Source: Candidatus Saccharimonadota bacterium
GTDB taxonomy: Bacteria; Patescibacteriota; Gracilibacteria; BD1-5; UBA6164
Assembly: GCA_965227835.1 (NCBI GenBank)
Contig: OZ245768.1
Span: 240,001-272,000 of the forward strand
DNA: 32,000 bases
Direction of reading: 5' to 3'
In this document: positions 1,480 through 26,668 of the stretch, in pieces
Layout: each line of letters begins with the position of its first letter
Numbering within the stretch: the first letter of the stretch is position 1
Position numbers and translations under genes: made by a program
The notes under the pieces: model-generated
What the model saw: only the letters and a program-made list of their open reading frames with translations
Databases searched by the model: none
What the model was told of the DNA's origin: nothing

Positions 1480-1605
1480 CTATATAGTTTATAAAAGTAA
1501 AAATATTTTTGTATATGAGTTTTGGATTATTATAATCTGTAAACAAAATTTAGTTTTTATAAACTATAGTACCCTCGTTCATTAAAACAAAAAGGAGTTT
1601 ATATT

Positions 1606-2115
1606 ATGACTTTATCACTAAATTTAGATCAAGAAGTCAAAAAGATGCAACTTAGATATAATATGTCTAAGATTTTTAGATATTTGCCTTTAGTTATAAT
1701 AGGATTAAGTGCTTTTTCTTTTCTATTAATGACTGTAAATATCTTCCTACTTTTTTTCTTCAACTACTCTTTGATAGGAGAGTATGTTATTTATTCTATA
1801 GAACCTCAAATAATTTTATGTATTTTGTCTACAATTATTATATATTATGGTTCTTATTGGGATAGAAAAACAATATTAATGGTAAATGCTTTATATCGAA
1901 GTTTCTTAGGACAGCTGGTATTTAAAAAAATCAAAGCTACAAGTAAGCAACTGGAAAATATAAGAAAAATAATAATTTGTAAACATCCATTTTTATTTGA
2001 AGGAGAAATAGCTTCAAAAAAAATTTGTTCTTACTCTAATATTATAGGTATGTTTACAATTTTGATGCCATCTATAAATGTCTTACTAGTTGCACTAACT
2101 ATGTATCTAATGTAG
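1606..2115 (+). CDS. hypothetical multi-pass membrane protein (169 aa), UGA-free, SD-led
   Basis: Uninterrupted ORF even in the standard code. AAAGGAG at 1591-1597 lies 8 nt before the ATG. About 3 hydrophobic helices. All 6 Gly codons are GGN. TAG stop, followed by the hairpin CCCCG-GCCTGAAGGCA-CGGGG plus a T-run at 2173-2200. Confidence 0.7.
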   Translation: MTLSLNLDQEVKKMQLRYNMSKIFRYLPLVIIGLSAFSFLLMTVNIFLLFFFNYSLIGEYVIYSIEPQIILCILSTIIIYYGSYWDRKTILMVNALYRSFLGQLVFKKIKATSKQLENIRKIIICKHPFLFEGEIASKKICSYSNIIGMFTILMPSINVLLVALTMYLM

Positions 2116-2159
2116 TTTTAAAAACCCTTGTTCTATTAAAAAATAGAGTAAAAAAGTTT

Positions 2160-2740
2160 TAGCTTTTCTTCTACCCCGGCCTGAAGGCACGGGGCTTTTA
2201 TTTGTACTGAAATTTAAAGCTCTATCTCTTCAATCTTATTCTCTTCTTCTCACTGTTGTTCCACATAATTAGATATTATTTCTCAATTTATCTCTCATAC
2301 ACTAGATACAAAATATCATACTCACCATATATTTCATGTCTTCCAATACCATCTCTTAATTTCTTTGTAAAAATAGCTCTTTATTGCCTTAGAACTTTCT
2401 CTCTTTATATGTCATACTATTGTAGATATTGGTTTAGTTAACGGTATCCTACAATACATATGTACATGATCTTCTTCCATTCATATCTTTATTATTATTA
2501 CTCATAGCTTTTTACTTATTCATCTTATGATCTTTTCCAATCTATCTTGTATCTCTTTTGTCATGAATGGATTTCTGTATTTTGTTATCCATACTATATG
2601 GTATCTGACATCATATGTCGCATGACTACTTTTTTGGTATTTCATTCTCTCTAGTGTTAGTTTTTAACACTATTTTATTTATTCTATTGATTTTTTACAC
2701 TTTTTTCTTTAGAATCGGCCTGAAGGCAACGGGGTTTAAA
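2160..2740 (-). mobile_element. IS200/IS605-family element no. 1 (tnpA only); boundaries approximate
   Basis: The Y1 transposase gene is flanked by two related subterminal hairpins: CCCCGGCCTGAAGGCACGGGG at 2173-2193 and CGGCCTGAAGGCAACGGGG at 2705-2724. There are no terminal IRs, as expected for this family. The exact ends cannot be fixed without an empty site. Confidence 0.6.
2214..2645 (-). CDS. tnpA: IS200/IS605 family Y1 (HUH) transposase TnpA, 143 aa
   Basis: Translation with UGA=Gly: MKYQKSSHATYDVRYHIVWITKYRNPFMTKEIQDRLEKIIRGISKKLGVIIIKIGMEEDHVHMYCRIPLTKPISTIVGHIKRESSKAIKSYFYKEIKRWYWKTGNIWGVGYFVSSVGEINGEIISNYVEQQGEEENKIEEIEL. It carries the family motifs YHIVW.TKYR, HVH and GYFVSSVG. 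Confidence 0.85.
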
Positions 2741-2896
2741 ACCCTATGTCACAACACATCTCATTTATTCAATTTCTATCACTTACACCTTCGGTGTCTT
2801 AACTATCTAAAGATAGGGGTTTTTATCCCGATGTGTTGAAATAAATTTGACTAATTTTGAATAATTCTATAAATTAATTAAATCAGTTTTAGGTTT

Positions 2897-2933
2897 AAAA
2901 AAATAGGTTGAGGTAAACCTCAACCTATTTTTC
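2897..2933. terminator. bidirectional rho-independent terminator
   Basis: An 11-bp stem ATAGGTTGAGG / CCTCAACCTAT with a TAAA loop. An A-run lies on the left and a T-run on the right. It sits between the convergent ORFs 1606-2115 (+) and 3051-3359 (-). Confidence 0.6.
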
Positions 2934-3050
2934 TATCAACTCCTTTTTGTATTAATTTTATATAAGAAAATCCTAACAATTAAGATAAATTTTCTAAAAA
3001 GATATAAAAATTTTGCCTCTTTTTTAATAATTATATCTTTGGTAAAATAT

Positions 3051-3359
3051 CTATTTATTGGAATAATACTTCCATGCAAATTTAGCTAAAAAGAAAGTAC
3101 AAACGGCAAATATTAAAAAGTATGTAAAACTTGAAAGAATATATGCTAAGACTATCCCTATTAAATATCCTATAAATAAAGAATATTTTTTCTTAACTAT
3201 AAAATAGTCTAAAACAAGTACAATTAATCCAAAGAATATTAGTCCAATAAGATTAAAAAAAACTAAGAATAAAGCTCCTAAAAATAAGCCCCCAAAAAAA
3301 GTATCTGATAAATCTATGTTTTTCTTAATACTACCTATAGTTTTGAGTAAAGAATCCAT
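3051..3359 (-). CDS. hypothetical small membrane protein (102 aa), UGA-free, SD-led
   Basis: AGGAGG at 3367-3372 (minus strand) lies 7 nt upstream of ATG 3359. Sequence begins MDSLLKTIGSIKK, followed by about 3 TM helices. All 8 Gly codons are GGN. TAG stop. The track ORF extends to 3428, but that upstream extension has no ribosome-binding site (RBS). Confidence 0.6.
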   Translation of the reverse strand: MDSLLKTIGSIKKNIDLSDTFFGGLFLGALFLVFFNLIGLIFFGLIVLVLDYFIVKKKYSLFIGYLIGIVLAYILSSFTYFLIFAVCTFFLAKFAWKYYSNK

Positions 3360-3523
3360 AATTTCTCCTCCTGAAAATGTTAATGAAAAATTTGAAAAAT
3401 AGCTTATATCATAAAATTTATGAGGCAAAGATATACTATTATTTCAAAGTAATAGTAATTTTATATAAGTTATAACAAATGTCAACAAAAAATTTTATTT
3501 ACATTTTTTACTTACCCACCATC

Positions 3524-3590: not shown

Positions 3591-3953
3591 TTATGCAACC
3601 AAGGCATAATTTCAATCATTATATCAATTCTCTCCCCCTAAAGTAACCGTTCTTCAAGGAGAACCAAAAGTGCTACTAGGAGTTTCTCTATTTTCAACAA
3701 TACCTAATCATTGATTATGATTATTATCTCTTAATCAAAGATAATTTAATTGCTCTCTAAGAATAGCTCAGGGTCTTGCTCAAAGTTTTCTAGCTAAATC
3801 TGTAGCATCTGACTGCCCATCTACAAAATCAGAGAAGTCTCATCATCTATCATCTAATATTTCTGCAACATCTTGATTTACTCATGATTGAGTTAAATGT
3901 GCTTTATGTTCTGGATTACTTTGAAGTAATAATTTTTTGTTTGTTGTATTCAT
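3591..3953 (-). CDS. hypothetical protein (120 aa, UGA=Gly)
   Basis: Open from ATG 3953 to TAA 3591 with many in-frame TGA codons. Sequence starts MNTTNKKLLLQSNPEHKAHLTQSGVNQDVAEILDDRGGDFSDFVDGQSD. I recognise no family. It lies directly downstream of the M23 peptidase gene. Confidence 0.5.
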
Positions 3954-3998: not shown

Positions 3999-6416
3999 TT
4001 ATTTAAAACTTATTTTTAAGCTATTGTTTGTAGATAGTGTATTGTTTAAAACAAATGCTACCTCTCATCTAGTTATTTTCTTGTTTGGTTGGAAATAATT
4101 TTCACCAAATCTATCTTTCCAAGTTAGGGTTTCCCCAAATAGGCTATATGCCTTTTTGTTCAAATCTGAATCTAAATCTTTATAGTCTCTAAGTCATCAA
4201 GGACTAATATCATCTAAGATTAAATATTTGTATGATCGTCTCAGGAACTCTTCTCTATTTAAAGTCTGATTTTTAGAATTTGGTTCTCTTGATAGAAGAG
4301 ACAGATTTTGTGTTACTTTATTTTTTAGTGATATATCGTTTGTGTTTAGTTTAATCTTGGTCAAAGCATTTCTCATCCACATATTGGAGTCATATTGACT
4401 TATGAAACGATCTTCCAAGAAATATCATCTGGATCAATTTGTAGCTATATCATTTTTAAGTACTTTTATAACATCATCTTTGTAAGCATAACTACTATCT
4501 AAACCTTTTGGGTTACTTACAACAAGTTTTTTCTCTGCTAATTTTTCATTGTTATAAGTATTTATTATTTCTATCTTTGCATCACCTCCTGTAGACCTAT
4601 AATCAAAGAGTAGTATTCAGGCAACTGTATCCGCATAGTCAAACTCAATTTCCTTTTGATATTCTCACAAGTTGCAAGTTCTCTTATAAATTCTTGAAAG
4701 GTTTTTTAATATTCCCTTTTTTATACAAACCTGTGTATCTCATATTCATTTTAGCTTATATGTTCATGAATATTTAACATTTATAAGTCTCTTTTTTATA
4801 TCATCTCTAAACATTGCTATTCATTTAACACTATCCGCTAATACTACTTTTGAATTTCAATATATTATTCAAGATTCTGGATATATCTTCTCATCTTTGG
4901 AATAAACTCTAATTTTGTATGTTTTTATTGTTTTACTACCAAACTTAATTGTTACATTTGTAGTTCAAGATTTTTTTCATGTAAGGTATATATCTCTCTT
5001 ACCATCAGTGAAGTTATAGAATTTCTTAGGGAATACTTCAAGTATTGATTCATCAGCTATAATTGCTATATCCAGAGGAGTATTTCATCTAAAAGGCTTG
5101 TTTTTGTATTTCTTGTTAATAGAGAATTCTATTTTTGATCTAGTTCCTTGTTTGATATTTCCTCAAATATTTTTTAAGTCTAGGTCAAACTCATAATTTC
5201 TAATAAAGTTTTCATATTCTCTAGCTTCTATTTGTTCTCTGGTCATTATATTCTTTCTTTCTATTTTCTTAGTTTTTGTAGTAGTTTTAGAATCTTCAAC
5301 CAGTACATAGTTGTGTTTTTTACCTGATGCTAGGAATTTGTCATAATCTTTTTTCATAGAAGATCTAGTTTTTGGTCAGAACCATCAAGCACCTGGTGTG
5401 GATTTATTTTGTACAATAGAGTTTTTGATTTGATAATCATATACTATATTTTCTATATCTCTATAATCTCAAGTTAATTCTCAATCATATAGTTCTAAAT
5501 CTCTAAGTACTTGTTGGACTAATCTTACATCTCATGAAGGGTATCAAACATAAACTGTTCTATCAAATATAGATGTATTTACAGTATCTATAGTTTTTGT
5601 ATTATTTGAGTTATTATCATCTTTTACTGTTACTTTTTCTACTTTGTATTCAGGGTTTTTAAGTTCTTTTAGTATTTTTCATTCTGTTTCTAAAAATAGT
5701 AATGGATCAACTGTATTTGCTTCTAGTTCATCAAAACAAACTCAATTTTCTGTTATTTCATTGTAAGAATAAGGACAAGTTTTACTATCATAATAATATG
5801 GATGAAATGGAGTGTCTAAATCAATTTGTAAGTGAAGATGATTTCATGTAGAATTTCAAGTATTTCACAGTGTTCAAAGCTTTTCTCAAGCTTCTAGCTT
5901 ATCTCATACTTTTACACTAATTTCATCTAAGTGTGCATAGTTACTAAAAACTTTTTTACCATACATATAATGTTCTACTGTAACTACATTTCACCAACCT
6001 AGTGCTTTTTTTGCAACTATTACTTTTCAGTCAGATATAGAATAAACTGGAGTACCTCTAGATGAAGCTATATCAGTTCATCAGTGTCAACCATATCATA
6101 CATCCCAACCATATTTATAACTAGCTCACCAAAGTACGGTATAATATCTAGTATAATCGTTGTAACCTCATCCTTTTTTTACATATTTGGAATAGTCTTT
6201 TGTTTTTAATATAGGTAGATTTTGCTTACAATCACTTTTCAGACTATCAAAGTCTGTATACCTACATTCAAGTTTTGAAACTTTTTTCAAAGGATATACT
6301 ATTTCAGGGGAATTATTAGCTCTTGATACAAGTCAAAGAGGGAATATATTTGAAATAATAAATATTGCTATAAATAGTTTCAAAACAAGTTTATTTAAGT
6401 TTTTTGTTTTTTGCAT
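3999..6416 (-). CDS. secreted M23/LytM-family metallopeptidase with a PG_binding_1-like domain and a long C-terminal region (805 aa)
   Basis: A single frame runs from ATG 6416 to TAA 3999 when TGA is sense. The track ORFs 5163-5357 and 4197-4418 are both in this frame. There is an N-terminal hydrophobic signal (KLVLKLFIAIFIISNIF). M23 motifs: HGGTDIASSRGTPVYSISDGKVI, NVVTVEH, YAHLDEISVKVGDKLEAGEKLGTLGNTGNSTGNHLHLQID. Peptidoglycan-binding-like segment: GDVRLVQQVLRDLELYDGELTGDYRDIENIVYDYQIKNSIV...GWFGPKTR. Confidence 0.85.
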
Positions 6417-7029
6417 AATAACTTTATTTTTGAAATAAATTTTTAAAAGTTATTATCCTGTATATAATCACGATGTATTAGAATTTTATTGCCTAGAATC
6501 TAAGAATCGTTTTTTTAATTATTACATTTAATATTTCTGCCAAAATACTTATAATGTTTCTATTTAAAGGTATATACAAAATATTTGACTTTTAATTTTT
6601 TATATACTTAATTTATTTTCTTGTGCACATATTACAACACAGAAATATAAACTTGTCAAATATTATATTTATTTTATAAATATGTTTTGAAATTAAAAAA
6701 TGACTCTTCCCTATCTGTTGAGAAAAATCAATTAATTTAATTAATAAAATATATTTACTTAATGTCAATATTATTGTATAATTAAATTATACAATAGCAA
6801 AGTATATTAGTCAATAGTTTAAAAATTTAATAAAAAAGAAGTAAAAACTAAAAATAATTTCCTCCTATACCCTTTTCCAGATACTATTTTACCCCCTATG
6901 TTTTATTCTCTCTATTCTATATCCCTTCTGTTCTATCCCCTACTATAAGAAACATTAAATAAAAAGATGGAATAAATGTTAATTATATATAGAGTATTAT
7001 GAAGAAAATCAAGTGAGATAGAGAGTGAA

Positions 7030-7345
7030 TGTCCACTCTCCTCCAAAGGAGAGGGTTAGGGTGAGGGTAAGTTGGAGAGGGTTAGGGTGAGGTATTGGTC
7101 GGCTTAGTGTTAGAGCTTTACGGAAAAAGCTAGGTTAAACTGTATGGAGTAAAGTCTTAGTAGAGTTAGAATGAAATCTGCTCTACTCCCCTCTCCTCTA
7201 AGGAGAGGGGCTGGGGGTGAGGTTGAGATGTAGAGGGTTAGGGTGAGGTTGAGAGGATCTATAGTGAGGTTGAGCCGAAGAAGGTTAGGATGAAGGCTGA
7301 GGGTTAGGGTGAGGGCTTGCTCGAAGAGGGTTAGGGTGAAGTCTC
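7030..7345 (+). repeat. G-rich hairpin and 16-mer repeat island (non-coding)
   Basis: GAGGGTTAGGGTGAGG occurs at 7051, 7077, 7233 and 7299, with a 15/16 copy at 7326, plus degenerate copies (GAAGGTTAGGATGAAGG at 7279; GGGGCTGGGGGTGAGGTTGAG at 7207). There are two hairpins: CTCTCC-TCCAAA-GGAGAG (7036-7053) and CCCCTCTCCT-CTA-AGGAGAGGGG (7187-7210). Local GC is roughly twice the background. Stops occur in all frames. Confidence 0.8.
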
Positions 7346-7415
7346 GCTCGGATCAAGATTAGTACTCAAATTAAAATTAACTTTTGGTTTAAAATTATTA
7401 AATACTTGTTTTCTT

Positions 7416-19792: not shown

Positions 19793-20425
19793 ATGATAGA
19801 TAATCCTGATTCCAAAATAATACATAGGAAAAAAGATTATTGGTTTATTTTTAAGAAATGCTTTAAAATATTTTTACAAATAGTAATAAGTGGTATTGCA
19901 ATTTGGGTTGCATCAATAGATGAATTGTATGGAACAAATGGTAAAATACTTTTTTATATAGTAAGTACAATTGTTACTCTTACATTAACATTTTTTATAT
20001 TTAGAACTAATATAATCAAAAAACAAAGAAGGCTTATATTTTTAAACATTTCAATCCAACTTTCTGCTCTATTATTTTTAGCTATTTATTATAATAGTGA
20101 AATGCAAAGCAGTAAAAAAACTGAAATTGAAACTGCAAAAGTTGAACCTGCAAAAGTTGAACCTGTAATGTTTACTTATGAAGATGAGGTATCACGTATT
20201 AGTTCATGTTGTGAAAGATACTTAATTAGGCTTAAAAATTATAATGGAAAAGACTTCCATATATTTATTAGTAATATAAATCCAGAAGTACCTATAACTC
20301 TACCAGGTGATACAGTAAAAATAAAAGCTAATATTACAAAAGATGGATATATGAATGTCATATATTTTAACAATTTAGACATTTATACACAAGGAGAAAA
20401 CGAGGAATCTAATGTAACAAAATAA
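19793..20425 (+). CDS. hypothetical membrane protein with a C-terminal soluble domain (210 aa), UGA-free, SD-led
   Basis: AAGGAG at 19782-19787 lies 5 nt before the ATG. About 3 TM helices, a short AKVEP-AKVEP repeat, then a roughly 80-aa hydrophilic domain. All 7 Gly codons are GGN. TAA stop and a terminator follow. Confidence 0.7.
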   Translation: MIDNPDSKIIHRKKDYWFIFKKCFKIFLQIVISGIAIWVASIDELYGTNGKILFYIVSTIVTLTLTFFIFRTNIIKKQRRLIFLNISIQLSALLFLAIYYNSEMQSSKKTEIETAKVEPAKVEPVMFTYEDEVSRISSCCERYLIRLKNYNGKDFHIFISNINPEVPITLPGDTVKIKANITKDGYMNVIYFNNLDIYTQGENEESNVTK

Positions 20426-20462
20426 AGCTATATTTAAATGATTTAGCTTGAAAAAATATTAA

Positions 20463-20488
20463 AGTCCCTCATTTGGGGGACTTTTTTA
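20463..20488 (+). terminator. rho-independent terminator
   Basis: AGTCCC-loop-GGGACT followed by TTTTTT. Confidence 0.6.
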
Positions 20489-23316: not shown

Positions 23317-23723
23317 AAAAAAGTATAAAATGTCCACATATTACACACAAAACTCCCCAGTTTTTTTAATAAAAAAGTCTAAAAAAAGCTTGACAGAGGG
23401 GATAATCTAATAATTGAAGTAATATATTATTATTACTTTTTTTTATGCAAGAAATACAAAAAATAATAAACAAAGAACTATGATATTTAATGAAATATGA
23501 ATGCAAAAATGATAAAAGATTTATTAAAGAGTTTTTTTGAGATATAATAAGGCTAAGAACAACAATAATGAACAAATTATGATTTTGAAAATATAAAAAT
23601 CCCAACAAAATGAGTGAAAAAATAAAACATTTCTTTGAAAAAGATAGTTTTAAAAATTTTAACCTAAAAGTAGAAAAAAGATGTTTTTCTATGTTATGAA
23701 AAATAAATAAAAATGATTATATA

Positions 23724-24929
23724 GGGACCTCTGCAAAAAGATAGATTTAAATTACAAAAATATAATAAAAAGATTAAAATATGATAAATATTTTAATTTT
23801 TTTTTAATGATTATGTCACCATTTAAAGAACAACAAACATTTTTGAATTATTTCCAAAATGAGTTATGAATTACAAGAACAGAAAAGTTTCTAACAAAAT
23901 TAGATAAAGTAGTCCCATGGGAATCAATATCAAATAAAATTAATTTATCTAGAGAAATATCAGATTGATGAGTTTGAAGACCAAGAATGGAAATACAAAA
24001 AATGTTAAAAATACTATTTCTTCAATGATTATATGGATTATCAGATCCGGAAATAGAAAATCAAATAAGAGACAGAAATAGCTTTCAAAAGTTTCTATGA
24101 ATATCTGAATCTAAAGATATACCAGATGAAACAACAATATGTAGATTTAGAAATGAATTATCAGAAAACTGAAGTCAGGAAACTATATTTACAATGACTC
24201 AATTTATTTTAGCTGAAATGTGATTTACAGTAGAAAAGTGATTTATTCAAGATGGTACTATAATAGAATCACCAAAATGAAGAAAGAATAATAAATGAGA
24301 AAATACAAGAGATAAGGAAGCTAGTTTTACAAAGAAGAATTGAAGAAGTTATCATTGATATAAAGCTCATATTGAAACAACAAAGAGAGGAGACTTTGTA
24401 ATGAATACAACATATACAACAGCTAAGATACATGATTCACAATTATCTGATACTTTAATGACTTGAGATGAGAGTGAAGAGGCATATTGAGATAGTGCCT
24501 ATATAAGTAAAGATAAAATAAGATTTTTAGATGAGTTATGAATTAAGTGAGAGTTCAATGAAAGATGATCTAGAAATAATCCGTTGACTTCTTATCAAAA
24601 AGAACAAAATAGAATTAAATCTACTATTAGGGCAAGAGTAGAACATCCTTTTTCTATTTTAAAGGCTAAATATTGAAATTATAAAACAAGATATAGATGA
24701 TTAGTTAAGAATGCTATGCACTGGTTTTTATCTTGTGCTATTTATAATTTTGAACTATTGGCAAGGAGATATATATAGCTTTCTAATAGGTGAATTGTGC
24801 CTAAATTTGGAAATTATACCTAAAAAAAGGCATAATTCATAGAAATTATCTTATATATTCTTCAAAAAAAGTGATTTTTATTCAAAATCACTTTTTTCTT
24901 GTTCTTTTCAACAATATTGCAGAGGTCCC
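23724..24929 (+). mobile_element. IS-D (IS5 family), 1206 bp, intact, nested in IS-A copy 2
   Basis: Perfect terminal IRs GGGACCTCTGCAA...TTGCAGAGGTCCC. A 4-bp TSD TATA lies at 23720-23723 and 24930-24933. The empty site is visible in IS-A copies 1 and 3. Confidence 0.88.
23807..24778 (+). CDS. IS5-family DDE transposase (323 aa)
   Basis: With UGA=Gly the translation is MIMSPFKEQQTFLNYFQNELGITRTEKFLTKLDKVVPWESI...GRPRMEIQKMLKILFLQGLYGLSDPEIENQIRDRNSFQKFL...IQDGTIIESP...YKAHIETT...AYGDSAYISK...IRARVEHPFSILKAKYGNYKTRYRGLVKNAMHWFLSCAIYNFELLARRYI. This is the typical IS5-group architecture. Confidence 0.85.
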
Positions 24930-26014
24930 TATAGTTTTTGATGAAGTTGATATAGCAAAACAATACTCAAAGAAGCTAGAAAATCTATCTAAAGTAAGAG
25001 ATTGAAGTACTTGAAATATAGTTTCTTGATATATGTATCATTGAGTAAGTATAAATTGAATTCCTGTAATACTTGAGTATGAAGATTTAACTAATAAATT
25101 TAAATCTGAATATTTTTGAAAATTAATTAAAAAAGTAGAAGATTATACTAAATGAAAGTGAATATATGTATATGATGCTTGATATGATATAGCATCATAT
25201 ATAGAATTTTTAAATAATAGTGTAAATAGATGGATAATAAGAGCTAAAAAGAATAGGATATATTTTGATTTAAAAACCGATAAATATTTAAAATTAAAGG
25301 AATTTAAAGATTGAGTTCATAAGGTAAGAATTAATTCAGTTAATGAATCAATATATCTTCATATTAGATCAAATCCTAAATTTCCTGAACCAATGAGGAT
25401 ATTATCAAATTCAAGAAAAACAGATATAGAAGAATATAAACAAAGACGGGAAATAGAGACAATATTTAAAACTATGAAGCAGGAGTTTCAGCTTGAGAAA
25501 CTTCAAGCTAAGAGTTTAATAGTATTTAAAAATTTTGTTTCTACTATACAGTTGGCTATGGCTTTGACTAGGACTATATATAAAAAGAATAATTCTTTTT
25601 GTGAGAATCAGAGGTTTATACTTTCTTCTAGATTTAAATCTAGATTTAGAGATTATACAAAATCTCGATGAATAACTATGAATTCTAATTCTATTGTTAA
25701 ATTTATATCTTATTGTTTAACAAAGTTGTATAAACCTCCTAAAAAACATATTAAAAATTTAAATAATAAAAACAACCTACATTTCCCTCAGTTATCCTTA
25801 TTCTCCTATGTCGATTTTATAAAAAGTGGGTAGTTTTGAGATTACAAAAAACAACTTATTTAATGAAACTCTGAAAAATTAAGATTTTGCAGAAAAAGTA
25901 ATTCTTTTATTTTTATTAGGCAAAGAGCTTTAGCTCTTTGATTTTATATCTTCATCAACAGATGGCTTTAGCCATTTGCTATTGTAGGAAATTTTTCTTC
26001 TTGAAGAAAATTAC

Positions 26015-26050
26015 ATATCAATAAATAATGGTACCTATCTAATGGTACAG
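26015..26050 (-). repeat. solo terminal inverted repeat of the IS481-like element IS-E
   Basis: The reverse complement CTGTACCATTAGATAGGTACCATTATTTATTGATAT matches the IS-E left end at 29745/29916 (CTGTACCAGTAGATAGGTACCACTATTTATTGATAT) at 34/36 positions. No transposase gene is attached. Confidence 0.6.
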
Positions 26051-26148
26051 TTAATTTAGACATAAAAATATCTTTTGACAAACATCAATTAAAAAATAGA
26101 GTAGAAGATGAAAGTATTTTCAAATCTAAACTAAAAAGGAGTATTATT

Positions 26149-26622
26149 ATGAAATATTTTTGTGTTAACTTCAAATATATGCTTTTGCTTGCTGTACTAA
26201 TTTCATTTTTTATAAGTAAGCTAAACATTAGTTTTGAAGAAACTGTGGTTTATTCTGCAGTAGTTTTTACAACAATGCTTGTTTTAGCTTTAATACCGGC
26301 TTCAATCAAATTATTTAGTAAAAAAAGTTCCGATACATTGCTTCTACCTGTTTTTCAATGTATTGGTGCATTATTTTTACTGTATCCTATTTCTCTATAT
26401 ATAGTTAGGGAAATGGTTCCAGAAATTGGGCAATATTATACAAACTATATAATTATTGAAAGTTTGGCACTTTTATTTGCTTCAGTATTTGCATTAGTAT
26501 GGTTAAAGACAAGTAAAGAAGTTTCTAATACTGAATTTTGGGAAAATTTCCTAAAAGAAATTCCTTTATTATTCATAGTATTTGAAGCTTCATTTTACCT
26601 GAAAAGGAGACAAACAGCATAA
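26149..26622 (+). CDS. hypothetical multi-pass membrane protein (157 aa), UGA-free, SD-led
   Basis: AAGGAG at 26136-26141 lies 7 nt before the ATG. About 4 TM helices. TAA stop. A very strong terminator follows immediately. Confidence 0.7.
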   Translation: MKYFCVNFKYMLLLAVLISFFISKLNISFEETVVYSAVVFTTMLVLALIPASIKLFSKKSSDTLLLPVFQCIGALFLLYPISLYIVREMVPEIGQYYTNYIIIESLALLFASVFALVWLKTSKEVSNTEFWENFLKEIPLLFIVFEASFYLKRRQTA

Positions 26623-26624
26623 AA

Positions 26625-26668
26625 AAATCCCCTTTTAAGTTATTCTTAAAAGGGGATTTTTCTTTTTT
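26625..26668 (+). terminator. strong rho-independent terminator
   Basis: A 15-bp stem AAATCCCCTTTTAAG / CTTAAAAGGGGATTT plus a T-run. IS-B copy 2 begins at the very next base. Confidence 0.8.

Follow-up and report, generated by a model that had tools for sequence, protein, structure and literature searches.

Codon reassignment is usually seen as genome-wide and as a barrier to gene flow. The locus described here raises the question of how a minority of chromosomal genes can stay outside such a reassignment, and why the same genes are alone in using a classical ribosome-binding site. It lies in a stretch of 32,000 nucleotides (nt), hereafter the window (contig OZ245768.1, positions 240,001 to 272,000; assembly GCA_965227835.1, Candidatus Saccharimonadota bacterium), which has a GC content of ~25% and is readable as coding DNA only with TGA as a sense codon. 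TGA occupies universally conserved glycine positions in topA, ung (GQDPYHgYgQAHG) and murD (GITgTKgKSTT), corresponding to genetic code 25 (UGA = Gly); an origin in code 4 was ruled out, as tryptophan is always encoded by TGG and never by TGA. The relatives of MurD all belong to Candidatus Gracilibacteria, the nearest being 94% identical and the next at most 52%, which suggests that the window is a part, rich in insertion sequences (ISs), of an isolated Gracilibacteria lineage. Two contigs from one other assembly (ERZ25074195), each covering part of the region, were used for comparison: L004 represents a close strain, ~98-99% identical to the window, and L005 a strain that has diverged further.

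Four SD-led genes without UGA

Read under code 25, the window has 28 genes of 100 codons or more that do not overlap one another. Four of these open reading frames (ORFs), namely ORF-A (1606-2115, plus strand), ORF-B (3051-3359, minus strand), ORF-C (19793-20425, plus strand) and ORF-D (26149-26622, plus strand), have no in-frame TGA and carry a strong Shine-Dalgarno (SD) site 5-8 nt 5' of the ATG. The remaining 24 genes have no SD, and 71% of their Gly codons are TGA. TGA accounts for 0 of 23 Gly codons in the four ORFs versus 307 of 430 in the native genes (p = 2.6e-13), and the two properties co-occur in 4/4 versus 0/24 genes (Fisher p ~5e-5, our own calculation). None of the 638 codons of the four ORFs is an in-frame TGA, and their stops are TAA or TAG. 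A mechanical scan of the window, in which AGGAG or GGAGG had to be followed after 3-13 nt by a start codon opening an ORF of 20 or more codons, returned no long UGA-free ORFs other than these four. Given the ~30 AAGGAG/AGGAGG motifs in the window, we calculated a chance expectation of ~0.002 for four exact SD-ATG spacings.

The preliminary description of this DNA, made from the sequence alone, had set ORF-A and ORF-B apart by their SD sites and by 14 Gly codons that are all GGN, and had estimated that about two-thirds of the Gly codons in lgt and ung are TGA. The counts agree: GGN is used six times in ORF-A and eight times in ORF-B, and TGA makes up 19 of 30 Gly codons in lgt and 11 of 17 in ung. 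The two further ORFs that it placed in the same class, at 19793 and 26149, also belong there, with seven and two GGN codons and no TGA. Its statement that no SD is found elsewhere was likewise borne out, since none of the 24 other genes has an SD within 20 nt, and the GGAGG motifs before the starts at 3953 and 27953 are 27 and 19 nt away from their ATGs.

ORF-A encodes an ORFan of 169 amino acids with ~3 transmembrane (TM) segments and ends in TAG. Its SD, AAAGGAG (1591-1597, plus strand), is located 8 nt 5' of the ATG. ORF-B runs in the opposite direction and encodes 102 amino acids with 3-4 TM segments and a basic C-terminus, also ending in TAG; its SD site, AGGAGGAG (3365-3372, minus strand), has an AGGAGG core (3367-3372) positioned 7 nt from the ATG. 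A sigma-70-like promoter, TTGACA-16-TAAAAT (3458-3485, minus strand; 11/12 positions, a consensus match only), is found ~100 nt further upstream. Between the two genes lies a perfect hairpin, AAAAAAATAGGTTGAGG-TAAA-CCTCAACCTATTTTT (2897-2933, both strands), with an A-run and a T-run, which constitutes a candidate bidirectional terminator common to ORF-A and ORF-B; it was read directly from the sequence and was not listed by a simple terminator scan.

ORF-C is the longest of the four, with 210 amino acids comprising three TM segments and a C-terminal beta-rich domain that is unreliable in the single-sequence AlphaFold2 model (predicted local distance difference test score, pLDDT, 56). It is preceded by AAAGGAG (19781-19787, plus strand) with a spacer of 5 nt, and followed by a terminator-like hairpin (20461-20484, both strands). 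ORF-D encodes 157 amino acids with ~4 TM segments. Its AAAGGAG (26135-26141, plus strand) is located 7 nt 5' of the ATG, and the upstream 30 nt, this SD included, are identical in L005. A sigma-70-like promoter, TTGACA-16-TAGAGT (26075-26102, plus strand; 10/12 positions, again by consensus only), is preceded by the palindrome GTACCTATCTAATGGTAC (26031-26048), and a hairpin of 17-19 bp (26623-26661) forms a putative terminator directly 3' of the stop codon. Each ORF is a separate unit of SD, ATG, coding region and putative hairpin terminator, to which a promoter match can be added for ORF-B and ORF-D. As had been proposed at the outset, such units are code-neutral: they are translatable under code 11 or code 25, with no in-frame TGA and with TAA or TAG as stops.

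The four proteins share 3-4 hydrophobic segments each and are mutually unrelated, the best BLASTP E-value of 0.18 ruling out paralogy. Their 5' untranslated regions fold no better than shuffled sequences (z ~0.3-0.45); these leaders being unstructured and the SDs unpaired, SD-sequestering leader structures were also ruled out.

The avoidance is confined to one codon. At every amino acid but Gly, the four ORFs (638 codons) use codons as the native genes do (6,432 codons; all p > 0.15), and GC and GC3 are the same as in native genes, so that the constraint is UGA-specific and does not represent a general compositional foreignness. Out of frame, the four ORFs contain 24 TGA triplets (+1 and +2 frames; 11 of these in one ORF-C frame), which means that only the reading frame has been purged. 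De novo birth from intergenic DNA is ruled out by this distribution. Gly accounts for 3.6% in the four ORFs; the figure is 6.7% for native genes and 10.5% for native membrane proteins, and such a scarcity is expected where the AT-friendly Gly codon is forbidden. Hydrophobicity is not the reason for the avoidance, because the native membrane proteins lgt and rhomboid have TGA at 33 of their 49 Gly codons.

Persistence and distribution of the signature

The two contigs of ERZ25074195 independently show the same arrangement of ORF-C and ORF-D as the window, by which an assembly chimera is ruled out. In L004, the tRNA cluster is joined directly to ORF-C, without the nest of an IS5-like element inside an IS30-like element that occupies 17336-19731 in the window, and ung is joined directly to the ORF-D region, without the nest of an IS5-type element inside ISA (ISA::IS5b, 23348-25842). 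Both nests are missing in L005 as well. The nests are therefore strain-specific, and ORF-C and ORF-D are chromosomal. All four ORFs, whose neighbours are lgt, topA, dus, murD, ung and IS elements, are located outside the mapped IS ends. They were rejected as IS passenger genes on these grounds, the nests being missing from L004 and L005 while ORF-C and ORF-D stay, and the association of the four genes with ISs is incidental, because the flanking nests are strain-specific insertions.

The most diverged comparison is provided by ORF-C. Nucleotide identity between the window and L005, in bins of 100 nt, is mostly 85-100% across MT183, murD and ung, and 44-71% in ORF-C. The L005 allele has 39% amino acid identity to that of the window, with a synonymous divergence (pS) of 0.46, a nonsynonymous divergence (pN) of 0.33 and a pN/pS of 0.72. 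It nevertheless keeps AAAGGAG, as does L004, and none of its 11 Gly codons is TGA. A second, truncated ORF-C-like tandem paralog adjoins it in L005; it is SD-led too, with three Gly codons that are all GGN. In the alignment of the alleles, the codon has changed in 23 of 90 identical-residue columns; two of the five conserved Gly columns show turnover between GGT and GGA and none shows TGA, and a Gly opposite Trp (TGG) or Cys (TGC) is encoded by GGA and not by the one-step TGA. An AKVEP pentapeptide repeat (20140-20170, residues ~115-126) is present in two copies in the window and three in L004, the variation being in frame. The C-terminus, IYFNNLDIY.QGE.EESNVTK, is conserved between the window and L005. 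This mix of a hypervariable protein and a conserved terminus points to a possible role in recognition or exclusion at the strain level, and participation of the hypervariable ORF-C in strain-level conflict as a membrane protein (exclusion, immunity) is plausible.

ORF-D differs from its L005 ortholog at 34 codons with no indel (pS 0.177, pN 0.043). The pN/pS of 0.24 and the lack of indels imply that it is under purifying selection. The ortholog has three Gly codons, all GGN. The promoter region of ORF-D has a relative within the window: 26009-26103 is a 76% similar copy of a palindrome-promoter module at 29739-30080, a perfect 171-bp tandem duplication that contains the 5' end of a truncated helix-turn-helix transposase-like gene (30026-30565), the palindrome GGTACCTATCTACTGGTAC and then a perfect TTGACA-17-TATAAT promoter. 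In L004, a copy of IS200 stands ~125 nt upstream of ORF-D instead of the nest.

UGA in the orthologs of sister strains had been named in advance as an observation that would speak against a code-neutral class. None was found, the L005 ORF-C allele, its paralog and the ORF-D ortholog being all TGA-free. Because this state persists through the deep divergence of ORF-C, the avoidance is a maintained trait and not an amelioration lag. Judged from these sequence comparisons, the SD and the UGA avoidance are both probably kept by selection and not left from a recent import.

The ORFs had also been considered too long to arise by chance. This argument fails, as chance antisense-shadow ORFs in the AT-rich window reach 100-165 codons and six stop-free runs of more than 100 codons are antisense shadows of real genes; the 102-codon ORF-B is consequently not significant from its length alone. 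These shadows, together with the lack of database homologs, would suit chance ORFs or decaying remnants in IS-rich DNA. Such a reading is scarcely credible in view of the exact SD-ATG spacing at four sites, the terminators directly after the stops, the conservation of ORF-C and ORF-D in independent assemblies, the in-frame indels of ORF-C and the pN/pS of ORF-D, and for these two ORFs it is effectively refuted. The part of the earlier claim that concerns gene status stands: the four ORFs are real genes, as judged from the SD and its exact spacing, the location in gene-free DNA, the conservation and the purifying selection taken together.

The nearest other species, represented by L007, displays the murD-ung-dus-topA synteny and has no equivalents of ORF-C or ORF-D. 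ORF-C adjoins the tRNA cluster, and the genes form islets of one gene each, of which two adjoin tRNA genes. The four genes are accessory and lineage-specific in their distribution. A scan of 292 kb of other code-25 sequence for SD-led ORFs revealed one clear further case, a soluble ORFan of 113 amino acids (R113) on rumen-type code-25 contigs, with AAAGGAG-8-ATG and no TGA among seven Gly codons. It is flanked by a large gene for an LRR/SLH surface protein on one side and by tRNA-Pro/tuf on the other, and sister contigs do not have it at this site. The family (L034, 2141-2482, minus strand; L052, 207-548, minus strand; L056, 10001-10342, plus strand; L020, 3445-3792, minus strand) falls into a cluster of 41 sequences, with a length of 113 amino acids in each of the 15 members listed. 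The diverged homolog in L020 is still TGA-free and has lost the SD.

Three other UGA-free ORFs were observed in the comparison loci. L008 encodes an RRM RNA-binding protein (19396-19656, plus strand) with no TGA, nine GGN codons and no SD. A 121-amino-acid ORF in L049 (2458-2823, plus strand) has a weak match to EAD9, an effector-associated domain. A 63-amino-acid ORF in L009 (~3645-3833, minus strand), led by AGGAGG-5-ATG, adjoins DndB and methyltransferase genes.

Explanations for the signature

A simple explanation for the signature is an expression effect, in which the four ORFs would be very highly expressed native genes whose SD boosts initiation and in which UGA is avoided as a slow or error-prone Gly codon. 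A highly expressed native class was among the suggestions of the preliminary description. The comparison was made with other code-25 genomes only, on contigs found by scanning metagenomes for a GTPase P-loop with TGA for Gly; the scan yielded 43 code-25 loci, many with tuf and the S10/spc operon, and none of the comparison loci contains a 16S 3' end. An SD was found at 0 of 24 EF-Tu ORFs, and an SD-like site at 2 of 72 ribosomal-protein ORFs. The sixteen EF-Tu ORFs of more than 300 codons have 3-22 TGA each, and the overall TGA fraction of Gly is 0.25 in EF-Tu and 0.50 in ribosomal proteins (28% to 73% by lineage). In the AT-richer lineages L010, L035 and L045, which resemble this genome, it reaches 49-55% in EF-Tu, and in AT-richer code-25 lineages 67-73% in ribosomal proteins. 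Some 75 genes from five further Gracilibacteria loci, pilins included, are TGA-rich, with the small RRM protein as the one notable exception, and have no strong SD; the sole SD-like match, an AGGA core of 4 nt, precedes a pilin-like gene in L009. From these three gene sets it follows that an SD is no mark of high expression in these organisms, and its conservation on the four ORFs is the more telling half of the signature.

The codon half is less uniform. In the rumen-type lineage (L022, L047, L049, L051, L053, L056), TGA is depleted to 8-14% of Gly codons in EF-Tu and ~28% in ribosomal proteins, against 53-87% in other genes, and the unbiased locus L056 confirms that this depletion is linked to expression. 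UGA thus seems to be disfavoured for Gly in certain code-25 bacteria and not in others. The TGA-free RRM protein with its nine GGN codons points the same way, and low-level misreading of UGA has been hinted at by proteomics (PMC4032931). However, the highly expressed genes of L056 have codon usage shifted at 10 amino acids, including A, I, K, L, P, R, S, T and V. No such multi-amino-acid shift is seen in the four ORFs, which deviate at Gly alone, and fast-evolving strain-specific ORFans are atypical of top-expressed genes. An expression effect is therefore poorly supported, and we regard it as quite unlikely to account for the class.

Searches for relatives returned little. For ORF-A, phmmer against 1.84 billion representative proteins recovered only the query itself, and for ORF-C a search of 5.8 billion proteins recovered itself and one strain variant. 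The four ORFs and the L005 ORF-C allele have no match above threshold in Pfam, PHROGs or PADLOC; weak sub-threshold PHROGs matches (E 0.004-0.04) were obtained for ORF-C and its L005 allele only, and none for ORF-A, ORF-B or ORF-D. Scans of IMG/VR with each ORF, with the ORF-C family alignment and with R113 gave no match, nor did tblastn of ORF-B, ORF-C and ORF-D against INPHARED. In the literature, the closest observation concerns phages: of 38 predicted Gracilibacteria phages larger than 20 kb, 34 are free of in-frame TGA and could be read under either code, a pattern that the authors ascribe to hosts on both sides of the code difference (Liu et al. 2023, mBio, PMC10746230). A chromosomal class of UGA-free, SD-led genes in code-25 bacteria was not found described in the literature.

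An SD and the lack of UGA are the needs of ordinary bacterial translation and not of this organism, which makes exchange the most economical explanation. With a probability of about 0.45, we propose that the four genes are laterally exchanged, code-neutral accessory cassettes, kept translatable by a standard-code, SD-dependent system. They would be members of a code-neutral pool that phages or other mobile DNA would carry to and fro between code-25 cells and bacteria with the standard code and SD-dependent initiation. A gene of this pool would have to give one protein under code 11 and code 25, and to initiate on SD-dependent ribosomes. Several observations weigh against this proposal and hold its probability at this level. 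No homolog was found in the searched phage and viral collections, plasmid-like contexts or standard-code organisms, and hence no donor and no vehicle; in the window, no phage, integrase or conjugation gene adjoins any of the four ORFs. Their appearance is otherwise native: the synonymous divergence of ORF-D (0.18) falls inside the range of its native neighbours (0.09-0.22) and gives no sign of import, and native codon usage together with the stable sites of ORF-C and ORF-D in three strains fits a long-resident native class. Integrated Gracilibacteria prophages are reported to be TGA-rich (PMC10746230), so that integration normally leads to the adoption of TGA. Finally, in light of the rumen-type lineage, some expression component in the UGA avoidance of this genome is possible. 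Exchange with standard-code, SD-using organisms, as envisaged in the preliminary description, is still the best candidate explanation, although the searches found no donor or homolog.

The alternatives differ in where the constraint would come from. If the genes are native, they could be a specialised class selected for SD-driven translation that is independent of the UGA-reading tRNA, and their products could be made when tRNA-Gly(UCA) or initiation fails, as in stress, phage shut-off or attack by an anticodon nuclease, for example as abortive-infection or exclusion effectors. This would agree with the native-like codon usage at all amino acids except Gly, the stable positions in three strains, the persistence of SD and UGA avoidance through deep allelic divergence, and the want of external homologs for ORF-A and ORF-C. 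The hypervariability of ORF-C is that of conflict genes, the products are small membrane proteins, and the TGA-free phages predicted for the clade would profit from disabling UGA decoding. On the other hand, nothing indicates a conditional loss of UGA decoding, PADLOC has no match for the four ORFs and the window no defence genes near them, leaders without regulatory structure speak for constitutive production, and the soluble 113-amino-acid analogue implies that membrane action is not general. A native class of this kind is the main rival to exchange, though we consider it doubtful. It is unlikely, in turn, that the four are cross-code genes made for a cytoplasm where UGA means stop and initiation goes through the SD, either that of the standard-code host of the episymbiont or the cell's own after phage infection; in the latter case, a TGA-free phage would have disabled UGA decoding, and the genes could encode shut-off-proof membrane effectors.

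A one-off recent transfer from a standard-code, SD-using donor, for instance the bacterial host of the episymbiont, with no continuing constraint, would give the genes the look of ordinary low-GC bacterial genes, SD-led and UGA-free, and the nearest other species indeed lacks them in its syntenic region. Recent acquisition, which the preliminary description had put forward as one option, does not agree with GC, GC3 and non-Gly codon usage that are indistinguishable from native, nor with fixed sites of ORF-C and ORF-D in three strains. ORF-C alleles at 39% amino acid identity and a pS of 0.46, with synonymous turnover of Gly codons, still have no TGA and remain SD-led. Moreover, four unrelated genes and a fifth family in another lineage share one state, and no donor homolog of ORF-A or ORF-C exists among the billions of proteins searched. 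A transfer of this type is very improbable.

If the preferred reading of continued traffic with standard-code partners is correct, the four genes mark what crosses the code barrier, and the combination of SD and UGA-free frame is a simple signature for finding crossing genes in any Gracilibacteria or Absconditabacteria genome. If they form a native class, they point to a conditional or costly decoding of UGA and to a second mode of initiation; if they are cross-code genes, they have been shaped by selection to function across a genetic-code boundary. The signature also has a practical use, as genes bearing it would be the only ones of such organisms expressible unchanged in Escherichia coli.

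Surrounding sequence and known systems

As noted in the preliminary description, an IS200-type element (no. 1; 2147-2846, minus strand) has been inserted between ORF-A and ORF-B, and it maps between ORF-A and the hairpin at 2897-2933. Its tnpA (2214-2645) has 10 TGA, and a 98% identical second copy is located at a different site in L004. The element is a passenger outside the UGA-free class. Two genes upstream of ORF-B is a large, TGA-rich, native gene for an M23 peptidase (3999-6416), with hyp120 and a terminator-like hairpin between it and ORF-B. Upstream of lgt, the region 6860-7350 comprises a C-rich stretch and, after it, ~320 nt of degenerate, G-rich repeats (GAGGGTTAGGGTGAGG) whose GC skew is +0.44 and which have no significant match in Rfam; the L004 contig terminates exactly at this region. 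Tandem paralogous TGA-rich genes of unassigned function, para1 and para2, occupy 9299-12040 and share a 250-nt stretch of 75% identity. In L005 (2-3777) the paralogs are of another family, in which the repeat EKLEREKQ occurs. These tandem families beside the UGA-free ORFs are native and fast-evolving. The ung ortholog of L005 (4304-5412) is split by a frameshift, which represents a pseudogene or an error (contig coverage 2.15x).

In the tRNA cluster next to ORF-C, two of the three tRNAs (17018-17093 and 17131-17207, both minus strand) have 8-nt anticodon loops, UUGGAAAG and AUUUUGAA, seen by ARAGORN, by eye and in the Rfam alignment. The L004 ortholog of the tRNA at 17018-17093 (9689-9764, minus strand) is 97% identical and differs at two adjacent anticodon bases, UUUCAAAG, readable as UCA, the UGA decoder. 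This apparent difference between strains may have a bearing on UGA decoding.

Among known systems, the TGA-free phages predicted for Gracilibacteria and Absconditabacteria (PMC10746230) are alike in having a code-25 host, no in-frame TGA and the same product under codes 11 and 25. They are, however, whole phage genomes tied to their hosts via CRISPR spacers, whereas the genes described here are single chromosomal genes without phage neighbours, hallmark genes (terminase, portal, tail, integrase) or a phage-family match. SD usage was not analysed in that work, and here it is the second defining feature. Morons, the autonomous promoter-ORF-terminator extras of phages that often encode small membrane exclusion proteins, resemble the four ORFs as solitary units with their own ribosome-binding site and, putatively, terminator, situated between unrelated genes and encoding small membrane proteins that are strain-variable ORFans. 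The context that defines a moron is missing, since the four ORFs are outside any prophage and no phage homologs were found.

Type I toxins and holins are also small, very hydrophobic and equipped with a strong ribosome-binding site, and ORF-B is holin-like in size and topology. Type I toxins are shorter than ~60 amino acids with a single TM segment, whereas the four ORFs encode 102-210 amino acids with 3-4 TM segments, their SDs are unpaired and no antisense RNA was identified. Holins have 2-4 TM segments and a charged C-terminus, and are encoded beside an endolysin in a lysis cassette; for ORF-B, no PHROGs holin match, no endolysin partner and no family match were identified, the M23 peptidase gene two genes upstream being large, TGA-rich and native. 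Integron cassettes are promoterless ORFs with attC beside intI; the window has no integrase, the ORFs are scattered, ORF-B and ORF-D have sigma-70-like promoter matches, and the 3' hairpins show the A/T-run form of terminators.

In the Bacteroidia, SD sites are scarce, the anti-SD is sequestered, and rpsU keeps its SD. As in the window, SDs are lacking genome-wide and the few strong sites suggest a special role for the SD. The Bacteroidia exception, however, is a conserved, autoregulated ribosomal-protein gene, whereas the exceptions described here are strain-specific ORFans in which the reassigned codon is avoided as well.

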